Assembly (NCBI GenBank): GCA_043815505.1 | Contig: JBDRIV010000004.1 | Coordinates: 113,671-177,670 of the forward strand | Source: a bacterium | Lineage (GTDB): Bacteria; Patescibacteriota; JABMPQ01; JBDRIV01 | Reading direction: 5' to 3' | Length of the DNA: 64,000 nucleotides | Shown: one piece after another, positions 14,437 to 46,676 of the stretch | Numbering within the stretch: position 1 is the first letter of the stretch | Layout of the letters: every line of letters begins with the position of its first letter | Position numbers and translations under genes: made by a program | Notes under the pieces: model-generated | Seen by the model: the letters and a program-made list of their open reading frames with translations, nothing else | The model's database searches: none | What the model was told of the DNA's origin: nothing

Positions 14437-14542
14437 CTCGGTAGTACGATTTAATGATTAATTTAAATTAGATTTCTAGTTTACCTCGATTCTTAAGAAA
14501 AGTATCTTCTACATCTTTTTTCGCCCGATTGTACTACCGGGC
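14437..14542. promoter_or_regulatory. GTAC-core inverted-repeat cassette upstream of glyS
   Basis: Proximal CTCGGTAGTACGATTT abuts the glyS ATG on the minus strand; distal GCCCGATTGTACTACCGGGC at 14524-14542. Confidence 0.5.
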
Positions 14543-14614
14543 ATAACAAAAATTAGTAACAAAAAATCACCTGTATTATATCACAAGTGATTTTTAGCTT
14601 CAATAAGGGTTTTT

Positions 14615-16159
14615 CTATTGCACAACGTCAAAATAGGCGCATTCACCATCTTCGGCGTCAGGATAAGTTCCCACCTTAAAACACATTCGATAAGTTCCAA
14701 ACGGAGCAGTACCAGGAACAAGGACGGATTTATTTGCAGAAAGAGATCCATTTGGTCCGATAGTTGTTGAAGATGGACTTATTGGATTTCCTCCATAACT
14801 GCTTCCATTTGGTAAATAAGCTTCTAACCAATAATCAAATTGTTTGGTAATTTCTTCATAATTTTTTACAGTGAGTTTGAAAGTGGCATATTCATTTCTG
14901 TGTACTACAGGAGTATTGGCTGTAGCAAATGCTTGGAAAGGAACTGTGGCTGTGTCATAAAAGATATCGCGCCCGGTTCCAGCAAACAAATCATTGGAAA
15001 ATGACACGTGAGCCGATTTATCATTAGCCATTTGAACAAACGAATAAGAAACATCAGGAGAATATCCAGGATTATCATCTTCAAAATTTGTTTCATCAGT
15101 CCAAGTTTCTCCACCATCAAACGATCTCATAAAATATCCTTCTGAAGCAAACCCTGATGTGTTTCTATTATCATCCCAAGCCATATAAATATAGGCAGGG
15201 CGAGCAGAATCAATAGTTACTGTTTGAGCAACTGCTTCTTCAGTACTTACTATTCTAATTGGCTCAAACGATGTGTTACCATGCTTCATTCTGGTAAAAT
15301 ATATATCACCATCAAAATCAAACGACAAATACAAATAATTTTCATCAACTGTACATCCCGGACTATACTGAAAAGAAGTAATTTGTGCTGGGTCAGCCAT
15401 TATGGGTTGTGTGAAAGTTTGTCCACCATCTGTAGAAACTGCTGCCCAAGCATATTCAGTATTATAATCATCTAAAAATCCTTGCCAACAAACTCCAATT
15501 ATATCATTGCGGGTATCTGTACCTTCAAGCACATCCATATGCACAGTTGTACCTTGATAACGTTCAACAATGTTTCCAGCCATGTCACCATCTATAACTT
15601 TAGGTGTGGAAAAAGTTTGACCATTGTTGGTTTTAGAAAAATAAAGCTTTCCATTCAAATATGTATCAAAGTTTTTCCAAACAATATAAGCACTACCACT
15701 TTTTCCCATATCTGCTTCAGGAAACATATTATAACCCACTGTTGAAACAGCAGCCGGATTAGAAAAGGAATCACCACCGTTGGTGGAATAAGCAAAATGA
15801 ACTTGGGTTTCAAAATTATTTCCTCTTACCCAGGAAGCTACTAAAGTTCCTTGTTTGTTAATATCTATAGCTTCATTTTTAGCACCGTCTCCAGCTGGAT
15901 CTAAAACATAAGATGTAAAAGGTCCGACTCCGGCTGTTTGCTTAGCAAAAAGAAATTTAAGTGGTTCTATTTCTTCATTATCATAAACAACATAAACAGA
16001 TTTGTCTGGTCCAACTGCCAATGAATCATGTTGTATGAATTGCCATCCTGGTAGTGCCGACACAACTTGATCAATCCCAAATGTTGTCATGGTGGCTAAA
16101 GCTACAGAAGCTACACCAAAAATTATTAACGAAATTCCGAAAAATAAAACTTTTTTCAT
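14615..16159 (-). CDS. secreted BNR/Asp-box repeat protein (sialidase-like beta-propeller)
   Basis: N-terminal signal peptide; repeated S-x-D-G-G-x-T-F/W boxes (STNGGDSF, STDGGQTF, SFDGGETW). Confidence 0.6.
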   Translation of the reverse strand: MKKVLFFGISLIIFGVASVALATMTTFGIDQVVSALPGWQFIQHDSLAVGPDKSVYVVYDNEEIEPLKFLFAKQTAGVGPFTSYVLDPAGDGAKNEAIDINKQGTLVASWVRGNNFETQVHFAYSTNGGDSFSNPAAVSTVGYNMFPEADMGKSGSAYIVWKNFDTYLNGKLYFSKTNNGQTFSTPKVIDGDMAGNIVERYQGTTVHMDVLEGTDTRNDIIGVCWQGFLDDYNTEYAWAAVSTDGGQTFTQPIMADPAQITSFQYSPGCTVDENYLYLSFDFDGDIYFTRMKHGNTSFEPIRIVSTEEAVAQTVTIDSARPAYIYMAWDDNRNTSGFASEGYFMRSFDGGETWTDETNFEDDNPGYSPDVSYSFVQMANDKSAHVSFSNDLFAGTGRDIFYDTATVPFQAFATANTPVVHRNEYATFKLTVKNYEEITKQFDYWLEAYLPNGSSYGGNPISPSSTTIGPNGSLSANKSVLVPGTAPFGTYRMCFKVGTYPDAEDGECAYFDVVQ

Positions 16160-16220
16160 TAGAATTTTATTAATTACTAAAGTAAAATTATTATATAACT
16201 ATATTTTTATTTTGTCAATA

Positions 16221-18971: not shown

Positions 18972-19302
18972 AAATTGGCAACAACAGATAAAACAAAATA
19001 GTTAACACCGCCACAACTAAAATTAAGAAATATAATATTATATCAAAAGTGAGAACAAATGTTCTGATGATAATTCCTATAACTAAACCAGCAAAGGTAT
19101 AATCCTGAAACATTGGTTTGAAAAGATTTTTAATTTTTATTAGCAGACCTAAAATCTTTTCAAAATAAACCAGCTGTTTCCCAACAAATTTTAATAAGCG
19201 CAGAAAACCTTTGGTATACCACCAAATTGGAAAGTTTAAAACATCACCTACTAAATTCAGGCTCAAATATTTCACACTATGACTAAAAGCAGAATTTTTC
19301 AT
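18934..19302 (-). CDS. hypothetical small membrane protein
   Basis: 122 aa hydrophobic ORF overlapping the clp gene start; weak. Confidence 0.3.
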   Translation of the reverse strand: MKNSAFSHSVKYLSLNLVGDVLNFPIWWYTKGFLRLLKFVGKQLVYFEKILGLLIKIKNLFKPMFQDYTFAGLVIGIIIRTFVLTFDIILYFLILVVAVLTILFYLLLPIFVVRQIFYFFYE

Positions 19303-19458
19303 TTATTTTAATTTTCTAAAAGATCTATTATATTATACAATTTTTTGATAGATTTGGAAACTAAAATGACTTTCTTCTCACCTTCCAGAGATTGTCTAGA
19401 TTCCCTGGAAGGAGAGCAAAAAGCCATTAATTACATTATATTACTTAATATTTTATCG

Positions 19459-20034
19459 TCAAACTTTAAGAGCGGAAACTAAAGATATTGGCCCTGATTG
19501 AATTTTAATTTTTTGAAAACCATTTTGTTTAAGAAGTCTAGGTAAAAAAGACGAAGGCCAAAATGTTGTATGCCCATCTCCAATTTTACGAAAATATTTC
19601 TCTAAAATTCTTGCTACTAGCGAGTCGCGAAAATAATCATAAATATAAATTTTTCCGTACGGCCTTAAAACGCGGTAAGTTTCAGCAATGGCTTTGTTCG
19701 GATCGGTAAAATGATGAAAAGCGTCAATGCTAGAAATAGCAGAAAAAAAATTAGCTAACCAAGGAAGCTGTTCGGCCAGTCCTAGTTCAAAATTAGTATT
19801 GGGTAAAAAAGGAGAATAATTTAAGGCTTTTTCTATCATATTTTCTGAAACATCTAAACCAAAAACTTCGCTCTGAGGAAATTTATTGGCAGTTTGACGA
19901 ACAAATTCTCCCGCACCACATCCTAAATCTAAAAGTTTTTCTTTAGGACGCAAAAAAACATTGGTCAATAATCTTTTTGCCTGGCGACGCGACCAAGATT
20001 CGTTGAAAGGATTGTATAATATTTTATTTGTCAT
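19459..20034 (-). CDS. class I SAM-dependent methyltransferase
   Basis: LDLGCGAGEF motif I; start codon abutted by a GTAC-core motif variant. Confidence 0.75.
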   Translation of the reverse strand: MTNKILYNPFNESWSRRQAKRLLTNVFLRPKEKLLDLGCGAGEFVRQTANKFPQSEVFGLDVSENMIEKALNYSPFLPNTNFELGLAEQLPWLANFFSAISSIDAFHHFTDPNKAIAETYRVLRPYGKIYIYDYFRDSLVARILEKYFRKIGDGHTTFWPSSFLPRLLKQNGFQKIKIQSGPISLVSALKV

Positions 20035-20137
20035 CCCGGTAGGACAACTTACTGCTTAATTAATATATTAACTTTACTTTTGTGTTCAATTTTTAGAAAG
20101 TTTTGTATGAGTTTTGTTCCCAGTTGTACTACCGGGC
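20035..20137. promoter_or_regulatory. GTAC-core inverted-repeat cassette upstream of the methyltransferase gene
   Basis: Proximal CCCGGTAGGACAA abuts the ATG on the minus strand; distal CCCAGTTGTACTACCGGGC at 20119-20137. Confidence 0.5.
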
Positions 20138-20140
20138 TTT

Positions 20141-20761
20141 TTAAGTGGTGATGGCAATTACTCGAGCAGGAGCACCACCGAGAGCTAATTTTATTGGTAA
20201 AGCCACCACAGTAAATTCTTCTTTATCTAAAAGTTTTTCTAAATTAGTAAGATTTTCTATCAGTAACACATCGTGATCAAGTAAAATTTTATGAACAGGA
20301 TACGGATTATGATCTATGCTATGGGAATCAATTCCCACCATAGCTACTTTTTTCTGTACTAAAATGTTGGCAACTTCCTGAGTTATTTGCGGACCAGTAG
20401 TAAAATAATTATCCTCAAAATAGTTTTCAATGTGATCAGTATAAAACAAAACTATATTACCCGGTTTAATATTCAAATTCATAACTAAATTACGATCAAT
20501 TATCTTTTCACCGCGGGCGTCGACCAAAACGCCGTCGCCAATAAAACATTTGGGAGCGTAATTGGTAATTAGTTTTCCCTCTTTAAAAAGATGGGAGGGC
20601 GCGTCAATGTGCGTACCCACGTGAGTAGGCAAACTTAATTCCGACTGAAAATATCCTTCGTTGGCAACGGTGGTAACAGGAGAAATTTTCAGCTTGGGAT
20701 CGCCAGGATAAACTGGCGTTTTTTTATTTAGGGAAACTGTTAAGTCGATGTAATCTATCAT
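20141..20761 (-). CDS. cyclase-family protein (kynurenine formamidase-like)
   Basis: HVGTHIDAPSH cyclase motif; the first 41 codons of the tracked ORF look non-protein-like, so the start is probably Met at 20761. Confidence 0.65.
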   Translation of the reverse strand: MIDYIDLTVSLNKKTPVYPGDPKLKISPVTTVANEGYFQSELSLPTHVGTHIDAPSHLFKEGKLITNYAPKCFIGDGVLVDARGEKIIDRNLVMNLNIKPGNIVLFYTDHIENYFEDNYFTTGPQITQEVANILVQKKVAMVGIDSHSIDHNPYPVHKILLDHDVLLIENLTNLEKLLDKEEFTVVALPIKLALGGAPARVIAITT

Positions 20762-20983
20762 TTTTAAATGATAATGATGGAGATTATTTCCCCTCCTGAA
20801 GCATAAGAAACCTGTTATAATTTTATTATAGCATATTTTGGACAAAAAAATCCCACTTAAGTTTCCAGTTACTATTGTTGTCATATTAAAAGAAAAAGAC
20901 CCGCGCTAGTTTTTAGAAAACTAACGCGGGCCGAAACGACGAATCCAAGGACTAAGACCAAAGTTCAGATGAGAACTGAGAGC

Positions 20984-25518: not shown

Positions 25519-25751
25519 AAATTAGATTAAAGATAAAAGAGCAAGGAGAAAAATAACTAGTACTTATATTCTAACAGATTTTATCGCATTTTACTTAAAA
25601 AGGAAACTCTTGCTTAAAACCCCCTTAGGACTTTTCTATAGAATAGTCCTATTTTAAATTTTGCTTGACTATTTTTACAAATAGCTCATTATTAACTGAA
25701 ATGATCTTTATGAATTGAAACGTTCATTTGTTTAACATCAGGAGGCACACC

Positions 25752-26261
25752 ATGAAATACTGGCTATTGTCTTTGCTTCTGCTGCTGACAACTGTGAGTT
25801 GTCTGGCGCAAAATTCTCCCCTCTCCAATCTGGTTTATCCAGAAATTCGGGAGGAATTTAGAAATTTGGTTGAGGCTCGTGATGAAAATGTTATAGATCT
25901 GATTCTAACTCACTGTTATAACACCAAATTTCCCTGTTGTGTGGGATCAAGTTATAAGGAGTTGCGAGAAGCATTTCCTTATGCCAACGAAAATTCAGTC
26001 CACTTTATGGTAGAAGTTTGTGAACGCCTGACGGAAATTGAGAACTACTATCAGTGGTCAGAATTTCTGGCTAAGTTCTGGCAACACAATCCTAACTATC
26101 TTAATCTCAGATTTTTAAAGTCTAAATGTCGTAGTAACGTTAATGAAAATTGGATAATTCGCAGTGTTCTTATCGGTTCAATTTTCATTTTGATGGCAGA
26201 CAATCCGGAAATTACTATTCCTGATGAAGTACTGAATTTCTTCCAAATCGCCCGGGAATGA
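25752..26261 (+). CDS. secreted Cys-containing hypothetical protein
   Basis: AGGAGG SD 6 nt before ATG at 25752; signal peptide MKYWLLSLLLLLTTVSCLA; GC higher than genome. Confidence 0.5.
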   Translation: MKYWLLSLLLLLTTVSCLAQNSPLSNLVYPEIREEFRNLVEARDENVIDLILTHCYNTKFPCCVGSSYKELREAFPYANENSVHFMVEVCERLTEIENYYQWSEFLAKFWQHNPNYLNLRFLKSKCRSNVNENWIIRSVLIGSIFILMADNPEITIPDEVLNFFQIARE

Positions 26262-26287
26262 GCAATCATTCCCTTTCTTTTTGCCTT

Positions 26288-26385
26288 CCCAGTAGTACAA
26301 TTAAATGATTCTTGTGTTTTATATTTTCTTATCTAATTTGCTAAAAAAGTTAGACTTTTCTATGTTCTACATTGTACTACTGGGC
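26288..26385. promoter_or_regulatory. GTAC-core inverted-repeat pair
   Basis: CCCAGTAGTACAATT (26288-26302) and its exact reverse complement AATTGTACTACTGGG (26371-26385). Confidence 0.5.
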
Positions 26386-26423
26386 TTATTTAAGCTATTT
26401 TATGTTTTATGTTTGCTAGAAGC

Positions 26424-26452
26424 TTGACAATTTTATGTTTTGGTAGTATAAT
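26424..26452 (+). promoter_or_regulatory. consensus sigma70-type promoter TTGACA-N17-TATAAT
   Basis: Exact TTGACA (26424-26429) and TATAAT (26447-26452) with a 17-nt spacer, about 85 nt upstream of the GTG-start gene. Confidence 0.5.
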
Positions 26453-26536
26453 ATAGCTCAAATAAAAATAAAGAAAGTTCTCTAACCCCCGCTTTCCGTA
26501 TTCTGGAAAAACAACTTAAAAAAGGGAGGACGGAAA

Positions 26537-26860
26537 GTGACAAAAAGAGACGTTTTGGTGGTGATGGCAATGTTACTCTGCATGACCGCGGGAAACATTG
26601 CAGGATTATTCCTCGCAAATGAGAACCCAATCCAGCAGATCTGGGAAGGTCCCGACGGGAACTTCAAGCTCCTGTTGGTTCTGTTCCCCTTCATCGTCAT
26701 CACCTTCTGCGTTCTCTGCATCCGCGAGGTGCGGAGAACCAGAAACAAACAGTGGGTGACACTGTATACCGTTTTGGCTATCGCCGGCATGGCAGCGGCC
26801 ATCGGAGTTGGGATTTGGAGTAGTAAGTGCTTCATCGCACTTATGGCTCCATCCTGCTAA
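26537..26860 (+). CDS. small membrane protein (107 aa)
   Basis: GTG start preceded by a GGGAGGA SD; three hydrophobic helices; about 50% GC. Confidence 0.5.
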   Translation: MTKRDVLVVMAMLLCMTAGNIAGLFLANENPIQQIWEGPDGNFKLLLVLFPFIVITFCVLCIREVRRTRNKQWVTLYTVLAIAGMAAAIGVGIWSSKCFIALMAPSC

Positions 26861-26869
26861 CCCCCTCAA

Positions 26870-26914
26870 CCCGCTCGTAGCAACCTTAATTGGAAGCTGC
26901 AGCGGGTTTTTTTT
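26870..26914 (+). terminator. intrinsic terminator
   Basis: CCCGCT...AGCGGG hairpin followed by T8. Confidence 0.5.
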
Positions 26915-26990
26915 GACAAAAATAGTATTTTTCGCTTTACTGCAAATATAAACAAGTGATCTTTTTACAAACTACATAAGGAGAATATTG

Positions 26991-27263
26991 ATGACCACAA
27001 AAGAATTTTTCAGAAGTTGGAGATTTCTCGTCTACTTGATATTATTGGTTCCGCTTTTTCTATCTGGATGGTGGACTGGTCATCTCATGCAAATGGGTGA
27101 AAATTCCACAAACTCTCCGGTCATTGGGATGGTCCTTATCAGTATTTTGTTCGTACTTTCAATCTTTACTTACATTGAAAAGGTAAGTGAGGGATTTGGA
27201 TTCTGCATTTTCTTTTTCTCACTTCTTGTCGTGGCTGGTAGCATGATCCTGTCATGTTATTAA
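26991..27263 (+). CDS. small membrane protein (about 90 aa)
   Basis: AAGGAG SD 8 nt upstream of ATG; two TM helices. Confidence 0.4.
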   Translation: MTTKEFFRSWRFLVYLILLVPLFLSGWWTGHLMQMGENSTNSPVIGMVLISILFVLSIFTYIEKVSEGFGFCIFFFSLLVVAGSMILSCY

Positions 27264-31857: not shown

Positions 31858-33570
31858 CTACATTTCCTCTACAGTTTCTATTCCCAGTAACAATAAACCA
31901 TTTTTCAAAATCTCAGCTGAAGCTTTAACAATAGCTAATTTCAATTCCTTGTTTTCGGTAGCTTTTAAAACTGGAACTTTTTGGTAATAGGAATTGATCA
32001 TTTTAGCTAAATCATACAAATAGTTAGCAATGGTATGGGGGAAATAATTTTTAGCGGCGTCCTCAACAATTTCTGGAAAACGATATAAATATCTAGCCAA
32101 GATTTCTTCTTCACTTTTTAAATCTCCGGAAACTTCTTTAATTTCGGTTTCTGCTTTTCTTAAAATACTTTGCAAACGAGCATAAGTGTATTGCAAATAT
32201 GGTCCCGTGTCGCCATCAAAACTCAACATCTTGTCCCAAACAAAAGTTACATTTTTGGTACGCGATTGTGAAAGGTCGCCATATTTAATGGCTCCCACAC
32301 CAATTTTTTTAGCAATCTCTTCTTTGTTTGGCAAATCAGGATTCTTTTCCGCAATTATTTTCTTGGCTTTTTTAATCGCTTCATCAATAAATTTTTCTAA
32401 ATCAACAACATTGCCTTCTCGGGTAGACATTTTTCCTTCTGGCAATCTCACCATACCAAAACTTACATGAACATTTTCTCCCGTTTTATCACCCAGTAAT
32501 TCTACGATCTTGAAAAGTTGATTGAAGTGATGAGTTTGGTCTGAAGCCACAACGTAAACATTTTTCTTATAATTATATATTTGCTGACGATATTTTAAAG
32601 TGGCTAGATCGCGCGTGTGATAAAGTGTGGCGCCGTCCGATTTGATTAAAATACAACGACCTAAATCATATTTTTCTAAATCAATAAAAACGGAACCGTC
32701 GGTATCAATGGCAGCAATTTTTTTCTTTAAAAGCTCATCAATGACAACCTGCATTTTATCTTTGTAAAAACTTTCGCCCAGTTTATTGTCAAAAGGAAGA
32801 ATTCCCAAAATATTATAAAGCTTTTCAAATTCTGTTAAACTAATTTCTACAAACCATTTCCACAACTGCAAATTCTCTTCGTCACCTTCTTCTAATTTTT
32901 TAAATTCCTTTTTGCCTTTTTCACGCAAATCTGGTTGATCATTTATTTTCTGCGTCATTTCCTGATAAAGTTTAGCCAGCTCTTGAACTGGATTGGCTTC
33001 AACTTTTTTCTTATTGCCATCATGTTTGTAGGCGTAAAGTAAAATTCCAAATTGCACTCCCCAGTCTCCCATGTGATTATCGGTTACAACGTCGTATCCC
33101 AAAAATTTAAAAATTCTGGTTAATGAGTCGCCAATAATGGTAGAACGCATGTGACCGACGTGCATAGGCTTAGCAACATTGGGCGAAGAATATTCAATGA
33201 TTACTTTTTTATTCTGCCCCAAGGTAGAAGCGCCATATTTATTTTTAGCTTCCAAAATATTCTGCAATTCCTTCTGCAAAATTTCTGTTGCTAAAGTTAT
33301 ATTTATAAATCCCGGACCAGCCACTGCCACTGCTTTTATTAGTTCATTTTTCTCTAGCTGCAATTGTTCAGAAATTTCTGTTGCTAAGTTCTTTGGATTT
33401 TCTTTCAATTCTTTCGCTAAAATCATGGCAATATTGGCAGCAAAATCACCATGAGCAAGATCATCTGGATGTTCTAAAATCCATTTAGGCATCTTAAAAT
33501 TTGCCTGTTTTTTGTTTGTAACAGACAATGTGGCCTTGGCAACCAATTGTTTTACCCTATCTCTAATCAT
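31858..33570 (-). CDS. argS: arginyl-tRNA synthetase
   Basis: 570 aa; SSPNVAKPMHVGHMRST HIGH region. Confidence 0.9.
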   Translation of the reverse strand: MIRDRVKQLVAKATLSVTNKKQANFKMPKWILEHPDDLAHGDFAANIAMILAKELKENPKNLATEISEQLQLEKNELIKAVAVAGPGFINITLATEILQKELQNILEAKNKYGASTLGQNKKVIIEYSSPNVAKPMHVGHMRSTIIGDSLTRIFKFLGYDVVTDNHMGDWGVQFGILLYAYKHDGNKKKVEANPVQELAKLYQEMTQKINDQPDLREKGKKEFKKLEEGDEENLQLWKWFVEISLTEFEKLYNILGILPFDNKLGESFYKDKMQVVIDELLKKKIAAIDTDGSVFIDLEKYDLGRCILIKSDGATLYHTRDLATLKYRQQIYNYKKNVYVVASDQTHHFNQLFKIVELLGDKTGENVHVSFGMVRLPEGKMSTREGNVVDLEKFIDEAIKKAKKIIAEKNPDLPNKEEIAKKIGVGAIKYGDLSQSRTKNVTFVWDKMLSFDGDTGPYLQYTYARLQSILRKAETEIKEVSGDLKSEEEILARYLYRFPEIVEDAAKNYFPHTIANYLYDLAKMINSYYQKVPVLKATENKELKLAIVKASAEILKNGLLLLGIETVEEM

Positions 33571-33633
33571 GTGATTATTATAACTTAAGACCTCTTGTCA
33601 AACAACCTTTCGCAACGAAATGCGGAAATTCTT

Positions 33634-33720: not shown

Positions 33721-33814
33721 GTAGAAAGAGTTGTTTGACAAGAGGTCTCTAATTTTGGCTTTGTTAAAGGGGTTTTCTTTGCTTTCTTGCCAATTTTGCT
33801 CTAATATTAACAAT

Positions 33815-35653: not shown

Positions 35654-36361
35654 TTATTTTCGGATAGTTGCAAAACTTAAATTTTTAGGACATTTTGTCA
35701 GGCACCTACTGCCTTTTTTTGTGACCAAATAATCATCTTCTATTCTCACTCCACCAAAATCCTTAATGTAAATACCCGGTTCAATGGTAATTACATCTCC
35801 AACTTTTAAACGTTCAAACTTTTTAGCTTTGCGGGATAGAAAAGGACGTTCGTGAATTTGTCTTCCTACTCCGTGTCCGAGACCATGATTAAAATATTCT
35901 AAATAGTTTTTCTTTTTCAAATTAGCGCAAGCGATTTCATAAAGTTTTTTTGCTCCCCGACCAGATTTTATTTCCCCCGCTGCCAGCTTTTGCGTTTGTA
36001 AAACTAGATTATAAATTTCTTTTTGTTTTTTTGTAGGATTTCCCATAATAAAAGTTCTGGTAATATCTGAGTGCCAGCCAAAATATTTCGCACCAAAATC
36101 TATAAACACCACATCCCCTTTTTTTAATTTTGTTGAATTTGGTTTATGATGAGGATTAATTCCGTTTTTTCCGGTAGCTACTAAAATTGGAAAAGCTAAA
36201 TCATCGGTTCCCCTTTTTAAAATTTCTGCTCTAATAAAATGAGCGATTTCTATTTCTGTTCTTCCTACTCGCAAGAACTTTCTAACTAACAACATAACCT
36301 GATCAGAAATTTGACAACCTTTAGTGATATAAAAATATTTTTTCTTTAACTTCTTTGTCAT
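35654..36361 (-). CDS. map: methionine aminopeptidase type I
   Basis: 235 aa M24 peptidase with conserved metal-binding D/H/E residues. Confidence 0.85.
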   Translation of the reverse strand: MTKKLKKKYFYITKGCQISDQVMLLVRKFLRVGRTEIEIAHFIRAEILKRGTDDLAFPILVATGKNGINPHHKPNSTKLKKGDVVFIDFGAKYFGWHSDITRTFIMGNPTKKQKEIYNLVLQTQKLAAGEIKSGRGAKKLYEIACANLKKKNYLEYFNHGLGHGVGRQIHERPFLSRKAKKFERLKVGDVITIEPGIYIKDFGGVRIEDDYLVTKKGSRCLTKCPKNLSFATIRK

Positions 36362-36691: not shown

Positions 36692-37162
36692 ATGAAAATA
36701 TTAGCGAAAAATCGCAGAGCAAAATTTGATTACCACCTGAAAGAATTTTTTGAAGCAGGTATTGTTTTGACTGGTCAAGAAACAAAATCAACCAAAGGTG
36801 GAAATATTAGCTTGAAAGGAAGTTACGTGACTTTGCATCCGGTTAAAGGTAAGCCCGGCTATATGGAAGCCTTTCTCTTAAATGCTCATATTTCCCCTTA
36901 TAAACACGCGGGGGAATTACCGGATTATGACCCGGTGCGCACCAGAAAATTACTGTTGAAAAAAGCAGAAATTAGAAAATTGATCGGTAAAAAGCAGGCA
37001 GAAGGCTTGACAATAGTACCTACAAAAGTGTATACTAAGCGACGCAAAATTAAAGTTGAAATCGCCCTTGCCCGCGGTAAGAAACAATATGACAAGCGCG
37101 AAGGAATTAAGCAACGCCAAGATGATCGCGCCGCCGAACGCGAATTGCGGGGAAAGATATAA
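36692..37162 (+). CDS. smpB: SsrA-binding protein
   Basis: 156 aa with SmpB-like sequence; immediately upstream of the tmRNA locus. Confidence 0.9.
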   Translation: MKILAKNRRAKFDYHLKEFFEAGIVLTGQETKSTKGGNISLKGSYVTLHPVKGKPGYMEAFLLNAHISPYKHAGELPDYDPVRTRKLLLKKAEIRKLIGKKQAEGLTIVPTKVYTKRRKIKVEIALARGKKQYDKREGIKQRQDDRAAERELRGKI

Positions 37163-37912: not shown

Positions 37913-38308
37913 GGGGATGCACGGCTTCGATAGTTTTGTTCCCTAAGAATTTGCAAACCGAGCTGTTATCTCGTAAATCTAACACCTGAACACGTGCAAA
38001 CACTGTTCAAAGAATGAAAGACAAAGTTGTTAGCTTTGCTCGCAGCCTTACGCCTTCATTCGCTCCTGTAGTTGCTTAATTAAGTAACTACCATCGCACT
38101 CACCTGCCTGAGGGGGAGGTTCGCGGTGTCATTTATCAGGCTTAGATTCTAAATGCTAATCATCCATTTATAATCGACATCTCTTGATGATTATGATTTA
38201 TTCGCTTTTGTCTATTTTTATGAATAAATCGAGAACTCCAAATAGACTATGTTTGTAGAAGGTTTTTAGATACGATGCTAGACGTGGGTTCGATTCCCAC
38301 CATCTCCA
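37913..38308 (+). ncRNA. ssrA: tmRNA (ssrA)
   Basis: 5' GGGGAUGCACGGCUUCGAUAG tRNA-like start; 3' T-arm GUGGGUUCGAUUCCCAC plus acceptor strand CAUCUCC complementary to the 5' GGGGAUG; candidate tag ORF ending ...PVVA-UAA; located just after smpB. Confidence 0.75.
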
Positions 38309-38310
38309 TA

Positions 38311-38340
38311 AAAGAATCCCTTAAGAAAGGGATTTTTTTA
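38311..38340 (+). terminator. intrinsic terminator after ssrA
   Basis: AAAGAATCCC-TTAAG-AAAGGGATTTTTTT hairpin plus T-run. Confidence 0.55.
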
Positions 38341-39450: not shown

Positions 39451-39499
39451 ATTAAATATTTGACAAAATATTTCTTGATATTATACTAATAAAGCTCTT

Positions 39500-39830
39500 T
39501 AGATATAAATATGTGGTGTGGTGCGGGGTGGCTGATAAGCTGATACGGTTGAGTGCTGTGTAAAAATCGTAATGGATATCCTTATTGGGGTCACGGCTAG
39601 ATTCCCATGATGTCCGAGGAACAGGAGTAAACCTGTACACACGTGCTGTGTCGCAGCATCGCGCAAAGTCAGTTAGTTCTGCATGCGCAGGCCCGCCAAG
39701 ATCAGTACCGAAAGGGAAAAATCGTTGGCCAATAATTCTGGGCACCATCTCGCCGAAATATCGCTTTTTCATCCCCCCGCACCCACCCTTTTTCAAGGCA
39801 GATTTGGACCAAGTCCTTTCTGCCTTTTCT
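39500..39830 (+). ncRNA. candidate structured ncRNA (about 330 nt)
   Basis: TTGACA-N16-TATACT promoter at 39461-39488; 5' GGTGCGGGG pairs with 3' CCCCGCACC; terminator AAGGCAGA...TCTGCCTT plus U-run at about 39787-39830. Confidence 0.25.
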
Positions 39831-39840
39831 TTTTCCTTGA

Positions 39841-39937
39841 CCCAGCAGCACAAGTATCTACACAAATATTAAGTATTTAAATTATTTATACTATTCTATT
39901 ATATCTGAAATAATAAAATGGAATTTGTACTACCGGG
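39841..39937. promoter_or_regulatory. GTAC-core cassette upstream of infC
   Basis: Degenerate distal CCCAGCAGCACAAGTA; proximal AATTTGTACTACCGGG (39922-39937), 57 nt before the infC TTG start. Confidence 0.4.
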
Positions 39938-39993
39938 TTGACCAAATGGTCATTTTTTTGTATTTTAAAGGTACTAACTACTAATTTTACATA

Positions 39994-40578: not shown

Positions 40579-40685
40579 CTCGGTAGTACAACCGGACTAA
40601 TAAAATAAGTATAATCCTTTCTGATAGTATTATGCTGATTAAATAAGTAAAAAACATTAAATAATCATTAAGTTGTACTACCGGG
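40579..40685. promoter_or_regulatory. GTAC-core inverted-repeat cassette upstream of rpmI
   Basis: Distal CTCGGTAGTACAACCGGA; proximal AGTTGTACTACCGGG ends at 40685, ATG at 40686. Confidence 0.55.
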
Positions 40686-40883
40686 ATGCCCAAACTAAAG
40701 ACTCATAAAGCAACTGCCAAAAGAATCAGATTAACTGCGAAGAAAAAACTGATGCAACGCTATACTCATCAGGATCATTTTAATGCTCGTGATACTGGCA
40801 ATAAAACTCGCAAAAAAAGAAGAGATGTTGTTTCTAGTTCAACCAACGTTAAGAAAATGAAAAAATCTCTTCCCTATCAATAG
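40686..40883 (+). CDS. rpmI: 50S ribosomal protein L35
   Basis: MPKLKTHKATAKR L35 N-terminus. Confidence 0.9.
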   Translation: MPKLKTHKATAKRIRLTAKKKLMQRYTHQDHFNARDTGNKTRKKRRDVVSSSTNVKKMKKSLPYQ

Positions 40884-40963
40884 AGATTAAAAAGCAAAGA
40901 GTAAAGAGCAAAATACTCGTTTCGTTTCTTTAATCTTTTATCTCTTAATTTTTATTTAATATT

Positions 40964-41317: not shown

Positions 41318-41327
41318 TAATTTGAGT

Positions 41328-41358
41328 TAAAAAAATAAGGGCTGCCCGAATGGGTAGC
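41328..41358. terminator. hairpin terminator after rplT
   Basis: AAGGGCTGCCC-GAAT-GGGTAGCCCTT. Confidence 0.5.
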
Positions 41359-41395
41359 CCTTTCTAGTTTGTTGTGTTCGTGTCGTCACCTGTTG

Positions 41396-42049
41396 TTAGG
41401 CGACGGCGGTTTCTTCGACGGTGGGTTCGGCCGGCTTGTCTTCCGACTTGGGGGGAAGCCACGCTTCTTCGACGATCGGCGGACGCATGTCCTCCGGCAT
41501 GTCGAACTCGTTGGTGCCGGGACGCGGGTCGTAGGCGAAGTCGACCCACAAGTAGTTGTTGAACCACTGGAACCAGGCCGATGTCTTGACGCCGATTTTC
41601 ATTCGCACCTGGTAGTCGAAGTGAGTCGGAAACAGCTCCCGCATCTCACCGAAATCAATGGCACGCTGGTAGACCTGTTGTTGCCCCCGCTTGTCGATGT
41701 AAACCAGTCGCACCTGCGACTGGACGATCCTCGAGACGCGCTCGAAGTCGGCGGCCGGTGCCCAGGCGATGGCCTGGTACTTGGCCCGATGTCCTGGGGG
41801 AGCCTCGACGATCCGCATAGGGATCACCTTCTCCAGTTCGGGGCGTGCGAAGAGCCGTTTCTTCTTCAAATCGAAGAAAAAGCCATTGCCGATGGGCTCG
41901 ATGGCTCGACCCGCCAAACGATGGACGTAGCATCCTTCGCGTCGTCCGTTGATGACGACTGTAGTGAAGAAAAACTCACTGTCGCCGATCTTGGCAACAG
42001 TACCGACCGTATTGATCGGCTTGGACTGACTCTGATATTGTCCTCTCAT
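41396..42049 (-). CDS. hypothetical protein in a high-GC island (about 217 aa)
   Basis: About 60% GC; AAGGAGG SD 7 nt before ATG at 42049; acidic Pro-rich C-terminal tail; no recognised domain. Confidence 0.6.
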   Translation of the reverse strand: MRGQYQSQSKPINTVGTVAKIGDSEFFFTTVVINGRREGCYVHRLAGRAIEPIGNGFFFDLKKKRLFARPELEKVIPMRIVEAPPGHRAKYQAIAWAPAADFERVSRIVQSQVRLVYIDKRGQQQVYQRAIDFGEMRELFPTHFDYQVRMKIGVKTSAWFQWFNNYLWVDFAYDPRPGTNEFDMPEDMRPPIVEEAWLPPKSEDKPAEPTVEETAVA

Positions 42050-42151
42050 GGCTTTTCCTCCTTGCCTTAGAGAGATTATATTATGGCGCAAAATTTTACA
42101 TGCGCCACCGAACACAAATTGAAACGAACATCATAACAACAAAAACATTGC

Positions 42152-42179
42152 ATTATACATTATTTGTAATATTTGTCAA
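42152..42179 (-). promoter_or_regulatory. consensus sigma70-type promoter (minus strand) TTGACA-N16-TATAAT
   Basis: TTGACA at 42179-42174 and TATAAT at 42157-42152, reading the minus strand. Confidence 0.45.
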
Positions 42180-42240
42180 TATTTAGAGGCTAAAACAAAA
42201 ACTGTCCATTTTTATAGACAGTTTTTTATACCTTATTTAA

Positions 42241-42340
42241 GCCCAGTAGTACAATTTACTTATTGAATTTTATCCTATTTTTTTGAACTTGTGAATAAAG
42301 AAGAAAATATTATTATCTAAGACAATTGTACTATCTGGGA
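42241..42340. promoter_or_regulatory. GTAC-core inverted-repeat pair
   Basis: GCCCAGTAGTACAATTT and CAATTGTACTATCTGGGA, between the subtilase stop and the promoter of the high-GC gene. Confidence 0.45.
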
Positions 42341-42347
42341 AGCCTTT

Positions 42348-44915
42348 TTAAAACAATCCAGCCGTTACATCAGCGCCTCCTCGAAAAGCGGAATCATAGG
42401 CAAAGAAATTTGGATAATTTCTGGGATAACCATTTACCTCAAATCCTCTTATGTGCGGACCACCACCATTGACTGCAGCAGTTAAAATTTCGGTGCGTCC
42501 GTCTTCATCAATATCAAACAAATCTACATGTGCTCCAATTTGGATATCGCCGTAGGCTTTAAATTCTCCTAATTGTGTATGATCTGAATTATAACGATAA
42601 ACTTTTATCCAAGCTTGCTCAGAAGAAGAACTTTGCGAAACGACAATTTCATCTTTACCATCGCCATCGTAATCCCCTGTCCCTACATCTACCCCACCAC
42701 GATAATCGGGATGAAAGGCAAAAAACTGAATTCCTTTAGCTGTGCCGTCCGCTTCAAAAACTCTAATTTGTGGTCCACCACCTGGTCCAGCACCGACAAT
42801 CACTTCGTCCTTACCATCATTATCAACGTCTCCCATAGCCACCGAGGCACCGGATTCCACATTACCAAAAGCATTCCATTCGCCCACAATTGTTTTGTCA
42901 TTATTGTAGCGATAAATTTTTACCCAGGCTTGTCCACCTTGCGCTTGCGCGGCAGCAATTTCTGCTTTGCCGTCGCCGTCCGTATCGCCACAAGCAATGT
43001 TAGTTCCAGTTCGAGAATCGGGATGAAAAGCAAAAAATTGAATTCCGCGCATCGAACCATCGGCTTCATAAACTTTAATGTGCGAACCAGCTCCAGCCAT
43101 CGGGGCAGTTATAACTTCATCAGCTCCGTCGCCATCAATATCACAAGCAGCCACATTAACACCGGATCGCATGGAAGTTCCATAAGGAAAAACATTTAAA
43201 ACTGATGGTGTTCCCGTTGGGCCGAAGCTTCTAACCTGACCACTACCTGGTCCAGAACCAGTTATAATTCGTAAATAATTTGGCATTGCTGAAACTTTGG
43301 TTTTAGCAGAATAATTGGGAACTTCATCATAAGAAAATATACTATAATAATATGTTTGACCGTTTGTAACCGAGGTATCTTCTTTGTATTCTCTACTACC
43401 AGAATAAATAGATGTTCCATCAGTGACGCTGGAAGGATAACCTGAAGTTTTTCGTCTGATCTTCACACCAGCAAAATCGTTGGTAGAGGGATTATCCCAG
43501 GTTAAAGAAACAAATCCATCATGTGGAATGGCAGTAAAATTACTAACTTTTGCAGGGGGTGTAGAATCATTGTTTAAAGCAGCAGAAATATTTATTAAAC
43601 CGTAACCATATTTATTATCTCTACCAGCCGCACCTAAATCAGTTGCGGTGTTTTTTATTGTTGTCCAAATATTAGCGGGAGCGATGCCTTTAGCTAACAT
43701 TAAAGCGACAGCTCCAGATACGTGAGGTGTAGCCATCGAAGTTCCCTGCCAAAATTGATAGGAAAAAGTAGTACAAGCTGAAGTGTTGCAAGTATCTTGT
43801 ATAATTCCATCGCCATGGCCATCACCGTTTTGATCAACAGAAGTATCTCCACCTGGCGCCATAATATCTAAAGCTGAACCGTAATTGGAATAACTAGCAC
43901 GCGTGGCATCATAACGAGTGGCACCAACCGCAATTACACCAGAGTGCGAAGCAGGATAATCAAGAGTGGGATCACCAATACTATCGCCTCCACCATTGCC
44001 AGCGGCAGCAACCACAATAACATTATGGGAAATAGCATGATCAATTGCTGATTTTAATGTAGCGCTATAACTTCCGCCCAAACTTAAATTTATAACGTCG
44101 GCGCCATGATTAACGGCATAATTAATTCCATCTGCTACAGCTGAAATTGGCCCCCAACCTACATCATCTAAAACTTTAACGGGCATTATTGTAGTATTGA
44201 AAGCAATTCCCGCTGTACCTAAATTATTATTGGTAGCTTGGGCAATCGTTCCAGAAACGTGCGTGCCGTGTCCATTATCATCATTGGGATGCGCATCACC
44301 ATTTATATAATCATAACCAGAGGTAAAATTTGTTCCTGCAAAATCTGGTGCTTTTTTATAACCACCATAATTCTCATAAGAAACTCCTGTATCAACAACT
44401 GCTACTACCACACTAGCAGCACCACCATATTTAGGATTTTTTTGATCAACGTTCCAAGCACTGGGCATATTAACATCTGAATTTGTTCCATTTCTAGTAT
44501 TGTGAAAATTCCATTGTAAATAAAAATAAGTGTCATTGGGCACATAGGAAGCTGTGTAAATATAATTCGGCTCGGCAAATTCCACTGCTGGGTTGTTATT
44601 TAATTCTGTAACAAATTCTTCTACACTTTTATTTTGTGGCACAGAAGCATTTGTTATTTTTTGCTCTGTAACACTTTTTACAGTCGAATTTTTTGCTGAC
44701 AATATTTTTAAACCACCAGTTTCTGATACATTATCTTTGAATTTAACTAAAACTTCACCTTCTACATAATCGGTAGCAGGTTCAGTGATGAAAGTTTTTC
44801 TTCCCAAATCGTCTTGAGCTGCTTGCAAATAAAAATCCGGATTAAATCCAGACATAGAAAACATGGTTGCCACAGCAATTAGACAAATCAAATAAAGGTG
44901 TTTTTTGTTTTTCAT
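42348..44915 (-). CDS. secreted subtilisin-like serine protease (S8) with C-terminal FG-GAP/VCBS-like repeats
   Basis: D (VVAVVDTGV), H (HGTHVSGT) and S (GTSMATPHVSG) catalytic triad motifs; signal peptide; Gly/Asp-rich repeats. Confidence 0.8.
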   Translation of the reverse strand: MKNKKHLYLICLIAVATMFSMSGFNPDFYLQAAQDDLGRKTFITEPATDYVEGEVLVKFKDNVSETGGLKILSAKNSTVKSVTEQKITNASVPQNKSVEEFVTELNNNPAVEFAEPNYIYTASYVPNDTYFYLQWNFHNTRNGTNSDVNMPSAWNVDQKNPKYGGAASVVVAVVDTGVSYENYGGYKKAPDFAGTNFTSGYDYINGDAHPNDDNGHGTHVSGTIAQATNNNLGTAGIAFNTTIMPVKVLDDVGWGPISAVADGINYAVNHGADVINLSLGGSYSATLKSAIDHAISHNVIVVAAAGNGGGDSIGDPTLDYPASHSGVIAVGATRYDATRASYSNYGSALDIMAPGGDTSVDQNGDGHGDGIIQDTCNTSACTTFSYQFWQGTSMATPHVSGAVALMLAKGIAPANIWTTIKNTATDLGAAGRDNKYGYGLINISAALNNDSTPPAKVSNFTAIPHDGFVSLTWDNPSTNDFAGVKIRRKTSGYPSSVTDGTSIYSGSREYKEDTSVTNGQTYYYSIFSYDEVPNYSAKTKVSAMPNYLRIITGSGPGSGQVRSFGPTGTPSVLNVFPYGTSMRSGVNVAACDIDGDGADEVITAPMAGAGSHIKVYEADGSMRGIQFFAFHPDSRTGTNIACGDTDGDGKAEIAAAQAQGGQAWVKIYRYNNDKTIVGEWNAFGNVESGASVAMGDVDNDGKDEVIVGAGPGGGPQIRVFEADGTAKGIQFFAFHPDYRGGVDVGTGDYDGDGKDEIVVSQSSSSEQAWIKVYRYNSDHTQLGEFKAYGDIQIGAHVDLFDIDEDGRTEILTAAVNGGGPHIRGFEVNGYPRNYPNFFAYDSAFRGGADVTAGLF

Positions 44916-44984
44916 TTTATTTCCCTCTTTTAAAAGTCTTTTACTATTTAAGTATACACCAAAATAGCAATAAAATCAAGGTTT

Positions 44985-46169
44985 TTAAATAACTTTTACC
45001 GCTTTAATGGCAAAAAGACTTATTACTCCCAAAATTAAAACAGTAATTCCTAAAACTATAAAAGTTTGTGAAATCGAATAAATATCGGCAAAATAACCGG
45101 CAAAAGGAATTATTAAGGCATATGTTATGCTATTAATTAATCCATGAATAGACAAAACGGTTGCGCGGCGATCAGAAGTGGTTAATTTGTTTATGTAATC
45201 GGTTAAAACAGTTTTGGCAAAGGCTCTCACAAATTGTTGAATAAAAGCAAAGGAAAAACTAAAAAGCCAAATAATGTTACCCATCAACAAATAACTGATA
45301 CCAATTAAAAATGGCAACATTACTAAAGAATAGCGCGCGCCCAGTTTCTTTTCCAGTTTGTAAGTTAATTTAGAACTGATAGCTGCCACAATTTGGAAAG
45401 ATGCAAAAATAACTCCAAAATAAATAATATCAACACCGGTTTCTTTTACATAAGGTTGATAAAACCACAGCACCGCTTGATTAAAACCAAAAATAATTCC
45501 AGCATAAATTATCAACCACTTCAATTTTTTGCTATGTAAAAATATTTCTTTAAGTATGTTTACAAGCTCTTTCGTATACCCTTCTTTAATAACTAATTTT
45601 GTTCTAACTGGTTCATACAAAGAAAAGGCTATAGGAATAAGCAATATTTGAAAAGGTAAAACTAAATAAAAAGTTAAACGAAAACTATAGTCACCAATAA
45701 TACTTCCTAAAATGGAAGAGATGGCAATAAAAGTTAAAGTTATAAAATAAGTATTGCCAAATATTTTTTTGTAATCTTTTGTTCTGCCCAGCCCTTTTAA
45801 AGTATCAAAAATAAAAGCGGAATCAGTTCCAGAAATGAAGGAAATGGCCAAAGCCAAAGAAAATTCTGCTAAAAAGAATTCTAGGAAAGAATCGCTAATA
45901 CTATAAATAGCCATTCCTAAAAATGAAAATAAGCCAGCCCAAATTAGAATTTTCTTACGACTAAAAAGATCGGCCAAATATCCTGATGGCACTTCTAAAA
46001 CCACAACTGAAATAGCAAACAAAGATTGCAGAACCATAATTTGCGTTAGTGACAAACCATGTTCCTGCCAAAACAAAACCACAATGGGCAAAGCAAAAAA
46101 TATACCTCTTATGGCCATGAAGAGGTAGAATTTCCAAATATTACTTTGTAACTTCAATTCTTCATTCAT
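44985..46169 (-). CDS. MFS transporter
   Basis: 394 aa with about 12 TM segments. Confidence 0.65.
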   Translation of the reverse strand: MNEELKLQSNIWKFYLFMAIRGIFFALPIVVLFWQEHGLSLTQIMVLQSLFAISVVVLEVPSGYLADLFSRKKILIWAGLFSFLGMAIYSISDSFLEFFLAEFSLALAISFISGTDSAFIFDTLKGLGRTKDYKKIFGNTYFITLTFIAISSILGSIIGDYSFRLTFYLVLPFQILLIPIAFSLYEPVRTKLVIKEGYTKELVNILKEIFLHSKKLKWLIIYAGIIFGFNQAVLWFYQPYVKETGVDIIYFGVIFASFQIVAAISSKLTYKLEKKLGARYSLVMLPFLIGISYLLMGNIIWLFSFSFAFIQQFVRAFAKTVLTDYINKLTTSDRRATVLSIHGLINSITYALIIPFAGYFADIYSISQTFIVLGITVLILGVISLFAIKAVKVI

Positions 46170-46512
46170 TTTTTACTCTGCGTACAATTAAATAAGAAAC
46201 AAAAATACCCACACCGTCTATTAAAACATCCATACTGCTGCCCATTCTACCCAGAATAAACAATTGATGAAACTCATCCAGTACCGCATACAAAATTGCC
46301 AATAGAATTGCATAAGTTACCAGTTTTTTATCATATTTCAAGGCGCGATAAACTAACCAAAACAAAACGCCAAATTCTACCATATGAGCAATTTTACGCA
46401 AGACAAAATCCCAATTTCCCAGACCGGAACTTAAGTTGGGTTGATTGGAAAAAAAGAAAATTAGGCCAGCCCATAAAATTGGTGGCAATACCTTGTAGAA
46501 AAAGTGTTTCAT
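46162..46512 (-). CDS. VanZ-like family membrane protein
   Basis: 116 aa with three or four TM helices, VanZ-like pattern. Confidence 0.5.
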   Translation of the reverse strand: MKHFFYKVLPPILWAGLIFFFSNQPNLSSGLGNWDFVLRKIAHMVEFGVLFWLVYRALKYDKKLVTYAILLAILYAVLDEFHQLFILGRMGSSMDVLIDGVGIFVSYLIVRRVKNE

Positions 46513-46561
46513 TGCTATGCTAAATAAGACCTTAAATGGTTTCTTTTATATTATAACATTT

Positions 46562-46676
46562 TTGGAAAAAAGCCCGGTTGTACAACCGGGAACAATCAGA
46601 ATACAAACCTCTCTTATTAATAATATCGTAATAGAAAGATAAATACAATTATTAATCATTAATTTGTACAACTGGG
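46562..46676. promoter_or_regulatory. GTAC-core inverted-repeat cassette upstream of the PHP gene
   Basis: Distal perfect palindrome CCCGGTTGTACAACCGGG; proximal AATTTGTACAACTGGG ends at 46676, ATG at 46677. Confidence 0.55.

Follow-up and report, generated by a model that had tools for sequence, protein, structure and literature searches.

Patescibacteria, the bacteria of the candidate phyla radiation (CPR), have very small and dense genomes that are thought to be poor in mobile elements, and their expression signals, with no Shine-Dalgarno sequences and apparent leaderless starts, are poorly understood. Among known bacterial MITEs (miniature inverted-repeat transposable elements), the Correia elements (CREE/NEMIS) of Neisseria carry 26-bp inverted repeats and duplicate a TA target. 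Here we analyze a recurring inverted-repeat cassette with a GTAC core in a 64-kb stretch of patescibacterial DNA (contig JBDRIV010000004.1, positions 113,671 to 177,670; the whole stretch is called the window, and coordinates refer to it), for which a preliminary description had offered four readings: an operator, a promoter, an RNA structure controlling initiation, or a MITE-like element. We conclude, with a probability of roughly 0.75, that the cassettes belong to a family of transposable elements that are non-autonomous and MITE-like, a reading that on sequence comparison appears to be the best explanation as a whole. We found neither the arm sequences in a relevant context nor a description of such an element in CPR bacteria in the literature, and the element is apparently previously undescribed.

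By analogy, the closest counterpart among known bacterial MITEs is the Correia element. Correia elements resemble the cassettes in being non-coding sequences of ~100 to 150 bp with terminal inverted repeats that occur in many copies near genes, in being cotranscribed with their repeats forming an mRNA hairpin (as is probable for the cassettes), and in having a subterminal or central site like that of integration host factor (IHF). They differ in that the cassette arms are unrelated in sequence and 14 to 17 bp rather than 26 bp long, the duplication is ATG, TATG, or AAG rather than TA, the cassette abuts the start codon exactly, and the hosts are CPR bacteria of several candidate phyla with 35 to 63% GC rather than Neisseria. 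MITEs derived from insertion sequences (IS), such as RUP, MITEAba12, and IS5-type elements, are similar in size, terminal inverted repeats, short duplication of the target, presence/absence polymorphism, and subfamilies that share ends, and the IS5 type also has a quasi-palindromic 4-bp target (YTAR, against YATR for the cassette); however, the cassette has no known parent IS, has two-thirds of its copies on start codons in an apparently defined gene-relative orientation, and also occurs at junctions of translationally coupled essential genes. Rickettsia palindromic elements (RPEs) are likewise mobile palindromic repeats that a reduced genome tolerates at positions touching essential genes, and one cassette copy also contributes codons (to the C terminus of TPI), but RPEs insert in frame and are translated, whereas the cassette normally lies outside the open reading frame (ORF) and its reading frames are not conserved. 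The cassette thus differs from known bacterial MITEs in its arm sequence, its ATG/YATR duplication, its exact start-codon placement, and its multi-phylum spread.

Written in gene orientation, the consensus of the element is (Y)ATG / CCCGGTAGTACAAC - 40 to 90 nt - GTTGTACTACCGGG(T) / ATG-ORF. Copies are ~70 to 115 bp long (range, 69 to 115 bp), with terminal inverted repeats of 14 to 17 bp and a variable spacer of 40 to 90 bp, and they lie within a target duplication of 3 bp, or 4 bp counting the T beside the proximal (gene-side) arm, that is most often (T/C)ATG. The decisive case, in which the compared sequences display the insertion directly, is the rplM-rpsI junction at locus L133 (loci of the comparison set are cited by number), where the S9 gene has a cassette that is missing from L179 (Candidatus Uhrbacteria, GCA_016188475.1) and L181, although the S9 proteins fall in one 90% cluster and the flanking DNA is ~92% identical. 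The empty site reads AAGAACTAG-TATG-ACTGAA, which is the rplM stop, one T, and the rpsI start; the filled site reads TAG-TATG[115 bp]TATG-ACTGAA, so that TATG is present twice rather than once, and the element within it begins and ends with CCCGGTAGTAC...GTACTACCGGG (also written CCCGGTAGTACAAT ... ATTGTACTACCGGG). No copies were present in the 20 kb surrounding the empty site of the Uhrbacteria genome. Where a start codon is the target, as here, the duplication leaves the gene with an unbroken ATG immediately behind the proximal arm.

The preliminary description had counted at least 14 motif copies, almost always arranged as inverted pairs, and we recovered all of the pairs that it listed. 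With at most one mismatch, TTGTACWACCGGG has 12 matches on both strands of the window, against 0.06 expected from dinucleotide-preserving shuffles, and with at most three mismatches all 14 arms of the seven listed pairs were found, with zero additional pairs. These seven cassettes measure 97 to 107 bp arm to arm, with inverted arms of 13 to 16 bp (CCCGGTAGTACAA ... TTGTACTACCGGG) flanking an AT-rich spacer, in a source genome of 35% GC whose GlyRS has its closest named relatives in Patescibacteria/Parcubacteria. The cassettes, together with the native promoter-like site of glyS, are as follows.

c1, 14437-14541, minus strand: 105 bp; the proximal arm (14437-14449, TCGTACTACCGAG on the minus strand) abuts the glyS ATG at 14436-14434 (GlyRS gene, 13108-14436, minus strand); the distal arm (14524-14541) is the near-palindrome CCCGGTAGTACAATCGGG; CAT at 14434-14436 and 14542-14544 (ATG on the gene strand) forms a direct repeat.
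c2, 20035-20136, minus strand: 102 bp; the ATG of a SAM methyltransferase gene (19459-20034, minus strand) directly follows the proximal arm TTGTCCTACCGGG; the distal arm lies 4 nt past the stop codon of an upstream cyclase-like gene (20141-20884); the flanks CAT and CTT match at 2 of 3 positions.
c3, 26288-26384, minus strand: 97 bp; away from any start codon, with a terminator-like hairpin (following the ORF at 25728-26261) on one side and a promoter-like site (TTGACA-17-TATAAT, for the ORF at 26537) on the other; the arms are a compensated variant (CCCAG/CTGGG), CTT/CTT flanks form a perfect direct repeat, and the orientation is set by the subterminal motif AATCATTTAA.
c4, 39841-39937, plus strand: 97 bp; away from a start codon; the distal arm is degenerate (CCCAGCAGCACAA, 10/13); a T and then TGA come after the proximal arm, giving direct-repeat flanks TGA/(T)TGA; it adjoins a TTGACC-17-TATTTT promoter-like site, and the infC TTG (39994) lies 56 nt beyond the end of the arm.
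c5, 40579-40685, plus strand: 107 bp, between infC and rpmI; the rpmI ATG at 40686 directly follows the proximal arm, and the distal arm has the near-palindromic sequence CTCGGTAGTACAACCGGA; the flanks TAG and ATG match at 1 of 3 positions.
c6, 42242-42339, no strand assigned: 98 bp; away from a start codon, bordered by the 3' end of an S8 protease gene (42348-44915, minus strand) and by a terminator-like hairpin that is bidirectional; AAG/AAG flanks form a perfect direct repeat, and one arm has a 1-nt indel.
c7, 46573-46676, plus strand: 104 bp; the proximal arm TTGTACAACTGGG abuts the ATG of a PHP-domain gene (46677-47510, plus strand); the distal arm CCCGGTTGTACAACCGGG (46573-46590) is a perfect 18-bp palindrome; a T/A change in the arms is compensated; the flanks are AAG and ATG.
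Native glyS promoter-like site, 14575-14603, minus strand: TTGAAG-17-TATAAT with TGn, a consensus match.

As had been described, the proximal arm directly abuts the ATG in four of the seven cassettes (at the genes for GlyRS, a class I SAM methyltransferase, L35, and a PHP-domain protein), the native genes of the window lack Shine-Dalgarno sequences, and one copy (c7) contains a perfect 18-bp palindrome. The three proximal copies said to follow AATCATTAA are c1, c5, and c7, to which c3 adds a fourth with one extra T; AATCATTAANTYGTAC has 4 matches in the window against 0.06 expected. Some details had to be amended: the seven pairs include the degenerate distal arm of c4 and three cassettes (c3, c4, and c6) that are not at start codons, and the distance from the arm upstream of infC, given as 57 nt, measures 56 nt. 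A local near-palindrome constitutes the distal arm in the four gene-adjacent window copies and not in c3, c4, or c6. Considered as a terminator, this palindrome was rejected, as a T-run is present only in c7 and there on the opposite strand. Spacer similarity was also set aside as a means of orienting c3, c4, and c6, with scores only at shuffle level.

The flanks of most copies are direct, not inverted, repeats. In the window they comprise CAT/CAT, CTT/CTT, AAG/AAG, and TGA/(T)TGA, with two further copies matching at 2 of 3 positions and c5 at 1 of 3; among metagenome copies we found CATA/CATA, TATG/TATG, CATG/CATG, CAAG/CAAG, and CTTG/CTTG. Because window copies have no T between the arm and the ATG, the duplication there is 3 bp, and a strict 4-bp duplication was discarded for them. 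The ends pair at 12 to 16 of 16 positions in most of 17 copies, while c4 and c6 are degenerate, with 4 and 8 mismatches. The element is non-coding: beyond the arm-encoded MPGST(T/I), mini-ORFs that start at the left ATG vary in length and sequence, and some continue into the gene. We rejected a leader peptide or in-frame insert on these grounds, as the MPGST(T/I) ORFs stop at inconsistent places and some enter the gene in or out of frame.

Two window genes could also be compared with cassette-free orthologs. The glyS site is empty in the relatives L117 to L119, whose GlyRS proteins have 81%, 70%, and 69% amino acid identity to that of the window; in L117, the 81% relative, the common upstream region, including TTGAAG-17-TATAAT, runs straight into the ATG, whereas in the window 105 extra bases separate a first ATG from glyS's own ATG. 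The rpmI site is empty in L171 and L172 (IF-3 with 67% and 58% identity). Judged from these alignments, the cassette is an insertion rather than a native signal. Together, the cassettes are non-coding and below ~500 bp, have terminal inverted repeats and target duplications, occur as dispersed copies (7 in 64 kb and 4 in 20.5 kb), and show insertion polymorphism, as MITEs do; the MITE-like reading of the preliminary description is borne out by the empty orthologous sites, the filled/empty pair with its duplicated TATG, the direct-repeat flanks, and spacer subfamilies shared between sites.

A scan of metagenome contigs with a two-arm pattern, which selects for intact arms, returned 51 loci, of which 19 are an unrelated tandem satellite, 3 are doubtful (L122, L150, and L159), and the remaining 29 are true cassettes with the same arms on contigs of 40 to 63% GC (35 to 63% for hosts including that of the window). 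Exact protein look-up named Candidatus Sungbacteria RIFCSPLOWO2_01_FULL_60_25, Candidatus Uhrbacteria, and Parcubacteria bacterium Gr01-1014_31 as carriers, and on these sequence matches the family is spread through Patescibacteria of the Parcubacteria group, in several candidate phyla. A Sungbacteria locus of 20.5 kb, identical from four samples, has a copy at each of four gene starts (pth, a HIT gene, rpsU, and yqeY). A scan of a genome collection for TTGTACWACYGGGATG gave 116 loci, each a single match and none with a partner arm, which we regard as chance matches (~1e12 positions scanned). The palindrome was not found in viral contigs, where one lone arm inside an ORF was taken as chance.

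The 19 loci set aside (Ga0056xxx, Ga0209680, Ga0209259, and Ga0126xxx; L120, L121, L123, L127, L129, L138, L140, L141, L143, L149, L153-L157, L165-L167, and L170) consist of a tandem CGGTTGTACAAC/TTGTCAAAC satellite, in dense arrays of CCGGTTGTACAACC / TTGTCAAACC units on contigs of ~40 to 50% GC. The satellite has the GTACAAC core in common with the cassette arms but differs in organization.

The spacers form subfamilies whose members turn up at more than one gene and in more than one genome. The spacer at L139 pth belongs with that at the L164 mreD-like gene; those at L128 rseP, L130 HIT, L136 efp, and the L146 mreD-like gene are alike; and that of L130 yqeY belongs with L134, upstream of tRNA-Ala. 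In the last pair the internal orientation is equal but the flanks are reverse-complemented (CATA...CATA in L134 versus ...TATG), and the target can therefore be used in both orientations, as would be the case for a quasi-palindromic YATR and a DDE-type transposase. The start codons of efp (EF-P) and of the mreD-like gene are each occupied in two related species by cassettes with identical arms and unrelated spacers, which points to repeated insertion or replacement. The arm variant TTGTCCTACCGGG recurs independently in c2, L125, and L160, and AATCAT-N4-TTG, one mismatch from WATCAANNNNTTR, resembles an IHF site. AATCAT-N4 always lies on the proximal side, and the strong spacer homologies (three strong pairs) all have the same orientation relative to the gene, giving modest support for a shared internal polarity.

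The association with start codons is pronounced, with 24 of 37 copies (65%) lying 0 to 1 nt from an ATG-initiated ORF of at least 60 amino acids, against 1.9% of random positions in the same loci (P ~ 1e-32). The abutted genes are housekeeping genes, including those for TrpRS, GlyRS, GuaA, S9, S12, S21, L35, EF-P (twice), Pth, RseP, TPI, and FBA, among others; in L160, where the end of the TPI gene and the FBA start had overlapped, the final 12 TPI residues are now encoded by the element. The target itself accounts for part of the association, because three of the four YATR words hold an ATG on one strand, a duplicated start keeps the ORF intact, and insertions within ORFs are lost.

Sites resembling promoters lie outside the insert. 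The glyS promoter-like site is upstream of c1 and is conserved in the cassette-free L117, which places c1 inside the predicted 5' untranslated region; promoter-like sites also precede c5 and c7; and several copies are internal to operons (rplM-rpsI, HisRS-HIT-S21-YqeY, and TPI-FBA). Since native promoter-like sites or upstream cistrons lie outside the insert, the element is probably cotranscribed. In predicted RNA folds the arms pair in all seven window copies, with z scores from -0.6 to -4.3 (c5, -29.8 kcal/mol, z = -4.3); in GC-rich copies the predicted stem reaches over the UAU of UAUG, with fold energies of -28 to -56 kcal/mol and z scores from -0.05 (one copy) to -5.9. The RNA structure had been proposed as a control of initiation; the predicted stem stands and, given native promoter-like sites upstream of the insert, is probably relevant, but it is a consequence of the terminal inverted repeats and not a native riboregulator. 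At Rfam gathering score, tmRNA is the sole match in the window, and no known riboswitch, ribozyme, or ribosomal protein leader was matched at the cassettes.

How such an insert might be tolerated is suggested by the position of upstream stop codons: the L133 rplM stop lies in the left strand of the stem, the stop upstream of c2 is 4 nt from the stem, and in the Sungbacteria array the distances range from a few to ~21 nt. The footprint of a terminating ribosome extends about a dozen nucleotides beyond the stop codon on the 3' side. We propose that cotranscribed arms would pair into a stem of 13 to 20 bp that loops out the insert and leaves the AUG at or partly inside the stem base and that, within operons, the ribosome ending the upstream gene (with its stop 0 to 21 nt from the stem, or once inside the element) would open the stem and make the AUG accessible. 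In this way translational coupling would persist as an unmasking of structure instead of direct reinitiation, and opening of the stem by a terminating ribosome would explain the tolerance of inserts at 1-nt junctions of essential genes. Mobilization would occur in trans, by a transposase that recognizes the arms and that is likely to be of the DDE type, because target duplications are accompanied by both orientations relative to the target. A YATR/ATG target preference, together with purifying selection acting on very compact genomes, may produce the concentration at start codons; in such genomes the start codon would be among the few sites that tolerate a 100-bp insert with a regenerated ATG.

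Several observations weigh against a MITE-like family. No transposase, integrase, or HUH gene was found among the ORFs of the 64-kb window or in the 20 kb of the Sungbacteria genome (L174), and no related autonomous IS with the same ends was found in the window, L174, or viral contigs; as an autonomous element with these ends was not seen, mobility rests on comparative evidence only. Within a genome the spacers are mostly unalignable while the arms differ by only 2 to 8%, which also fits host selection on the arms, although several coexisting subfamilies mobilized via common ends would explain the same contrast. Gene-adjacent copies have a consistent internal polarity that a passive hairpin leaves unexplained. 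The folds of two of the seven window copies (c1 and c4) are no better than shuffles. Finally, a model of tolerated sites that counts intergenic target words and start codons predicts a start-codon share of 17% for the window (6% if AAG and TGA are also targets) and 32% for the Sungbacteria locus, and the observed share exceeds this rough model's 17 to 32% (P ~ 1e-5 against 30%). The two- to threefold excess that remains could reflect avoidance of promoters and terminators, further target preference, or a benefit to the host.

Other explanations must account for the same sites. A native operator or promoter of the downstream genes, passed on by vertical inheritance, would suit the gene-start position, the palindromic arms, and the genes that lack Shine-Dalgarno sequences, but it is very improbable given clean insertion with duplication at otherwise empty sites, the copies at non-genic positions, and the occurrence of the same element in other lineages before genes that are unrelated. 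Empty orthologous sites in relatives contradict the operator and native-promoter readings; absence of the motif from orthologous genes of related genomes was one of the conditions that the preliminary description had itself set for refutation, and for the regulatory readings it was observed. An operator for a dedicated regulon is thus not supported, and neither is a native promoter, for which there is also no convincing -35/-10 pair at a fixed position. A mobile element could instead carry its own outward promoter near the proximal arm (for example, with AATCAT-N4 as the -10 and a leader of ~10 to 14 nt or effectively none), and selection for it would account for both the polarity and the abutment to the ATG. 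In its favor, copies are consistently oriented relative to the gene, the distance between AATCAT(TAA) and the proximal arm is a constant 4 nt in c1, c3, c5, c7, and L164, the proximal third of the spacer is AT-rich even in hosts of 60% GC, and the source genome often has TATAAT 6 to 7 nt before the ATG, a leaderless-type geometry. We nonetheless consider a portable promoter unlikely: neither a -35 partner at 16 to 18 nt nor an extended -10 is present, TGTACT in the leaderless position carries a G at the critical -11, native promoter-like sites persist upstream of c1, c5, and c7, c3 and c6 face terminators instead of genes, and spacer similarity within the window barely exceeds the shuffled background. 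Domestication, in which the host keeps the arms as a protein operator or looping pair or as an RNA stem gating translation initiation, is doubtful to a similar degree. Near-invariant arms across hosts of 35 to 63% GC with freely varying spacers, some compensatory arm changes (c3, c7, and L160_1028), the occupation of both the EF-P and the mreD-like start codons in two species, and an AUG sequestered in the predicted stem of GC-rich copies all argue for it, but close relatives manage without a cassette at the same genes, the affected genes make no coherent regulon, copies also occur at non-genic sites, and uncompensated arm changes are as frequent as compensated ones. Moreover, arms would be just as conserved if transposition were restricted to copies whose ends are intact, and intact arms were a selection criterion for the metagenome set. 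We are similarly skeptical of a stronger proposal that joins these ideas, in which a CPR-wide mobile start-codon module homes to translation starts, is retained for rewiring expression through hairpin-gated coupling or an outward promoter, and has its arms bound by a conserved protein.

Mobility of a different kind would be provided by single-stranded transposition through an HUH/Y1 enzyme, as in repetitive extragenic palindromic sequences (REPs) and REPINs with their RAYTs or in IS200/IS605-like elements, where the apparent duplication would be a left target tetranucleotide plus the element's terminal ATG; sequence alone cannot tell a duplication from a target plus a matching right end. The likeness to REPINs and REP-BIMEs is considerable: these are also inverted pairs of a short conserved motif that form a ~100-nt hairpin in extragenic positions, with GTAG in the motif (here within the arms), and they are long-lived, with well-conserved motifs and varying spacers. 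In the cassettes, the long REPIN-like hairpin is joined in many copies by a local hairpin at the distal end. REPs, however, usually lie 3' of genes, are species specific, have no target duplication, and are tied to a single REP-flanked RAYT gene, whereas the cassette sits at the 5' edge of genes with duplications, and no match of the PF01797 type was found among the window ORFs and no Y1 or RAYT gene in either those ORFs or L174. The cassette ends are true, mutually complementary terminal inverted repeats, not the two like-oriented subterminal hairpins with one fixed asymmetric tetranucleotide of IS200/IS605; the reversed flanks of L134 and L130 yqeY fit a symmetric YATR target and not an asymmetric one read by a guide; both orientations occur inside one stretch of constant GC-skew sign; and rare flanks (CAAG/CAAG and AAG/AAG) are likewise duplicated. 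We therefore view an HUH/Y1 mechanism as improbable, though less so than a native signal. Least probable of all are integron attC-like recombination sites between mobile gene cassettes, a reading invited by imperfect inverted repeats with ...ACAAC / GTTGT... and a variable center over ~100 bp between short ORFs in the array-like L130 stretch. The flanking genes are housekeeping genes in native synteny (rplM-rpsI, rpsU-yqeY, and infC-rpmI), and, whereas attC sites have outer R''/R' core sites (RYYYAAC / GTTRRRY), extrahelical bases, mobile cassette genes, and arrays next to intI, the cassettes have their AAC/GTT triplets on the inner side of perfectly paired arms, have no extrahelical bases, and have no integrase nearby among the window ORFs or in L174.

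With 7 copies of ~100 bp each in the 64 kb sampled, the cassettes of this MITE-like family make up ~1% of the sequence and sit on start codons of essential genes, including 1-nt junctions of ribosomal protein genes, and the genes survive. They show what CPR genomes tolerate at initiation sites and offer natural experiments on translation initiation and coupling without Shine-Dalgarno sequences, as well as a marker for lineage and horizontal exchange among uncultured Parcubacteria. They are also a hazard for annotation, through false N- or C-terminal extensions (MPGSTT...) and lengthened intergenic spacers that can be mistaken for regulatory leaders.

Other features of the window touch on these themes. 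TATAAT-like hexamers lie 5 to 10 nt before starts (31858-33570, 35654-36361, 51200-53023, and 3836-4621; e.g., TATAAT-AATCAC-ATG for ArgRS), and the start regions of the source organism suggest that leaderless or near-leaderless mRNAs are common in it. Adjacent to c4, whose distal arm begins directly past its terminator, a GC-rich (~55%) segment of ~300 nt (39490-39835, plus strand) follows a near-consensus TTGACA-16-TATACT promoter (39460-39487) and precedes a terminator-like hairpin; it has complementary ends (GGTGTGGTGCGGGGTGG ... CCCCCCGCACCCACC), no convincing ORF, and no Rfam match at an E value of ≤1, and it is a candidate structured RNA. Downstream of rplT, a GC-rich ORF of 217 amino acids (41396-42049, minus strand) that has a promoter of its own (TTGACA-16-TATAAT, 42179-42152), a strong Shine-Dalgarno sequence (AAGGAGGAAAAGCC-ATG), and no Pfam match looks foreign in a genome otherwise lacking Shine-Dalgarno sequences. 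A similarly foreign-looking islet contains c3 (25728-27263, plus strand); its three small ORFs (177, 107, and 91 amino acids), two of them membrane or secreted-like, have GGAGG-type Shine-Dalgarno sequences and a consensus promoter at ~26425-26455, and the two ORFs scanned had no Pfam or NCBIfam match.

Two further inverted repeats were noted. A perfect 19-nt repeat, AGACCTCTTGTCAAACAAC, at 33588-33606 and 33730-33748, 123 nt apart and with TTGACA in each arm, lies between the divergent ArgRS and glycosyltransferase genes; it resembles a symmetric divergent promoter/operator and is unrelated to the GTAC cassette. A 36-nt inverted repeat (55329-55364 and 55424-55459; 83% complementary, with 59 nt between) lies just upstream of an ECF sigma factor gene (54707-55276, minus strand). 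Elsewhere in the window, a leucyl-tRNA synthetase of 960 amino acids (4625-7507, minus strand) has an unusual insertion, a NUDIX domain (residues 401 to 519) right behind its editing domain, and the tmRNA (37913-38311, plus strand) encodes the long tag ANTVQRMKDKVVSFARSLTPSFAPVVA, with SmpB at 36692-37162. In the Sungbacteria locus, the core of a diversity-generating retroelement (L174, 16861-18261), an RVT_1 reverse transcriptase beside bAvd, lies a few kilobases from the HIT-rpsU-yqeY cassettes.

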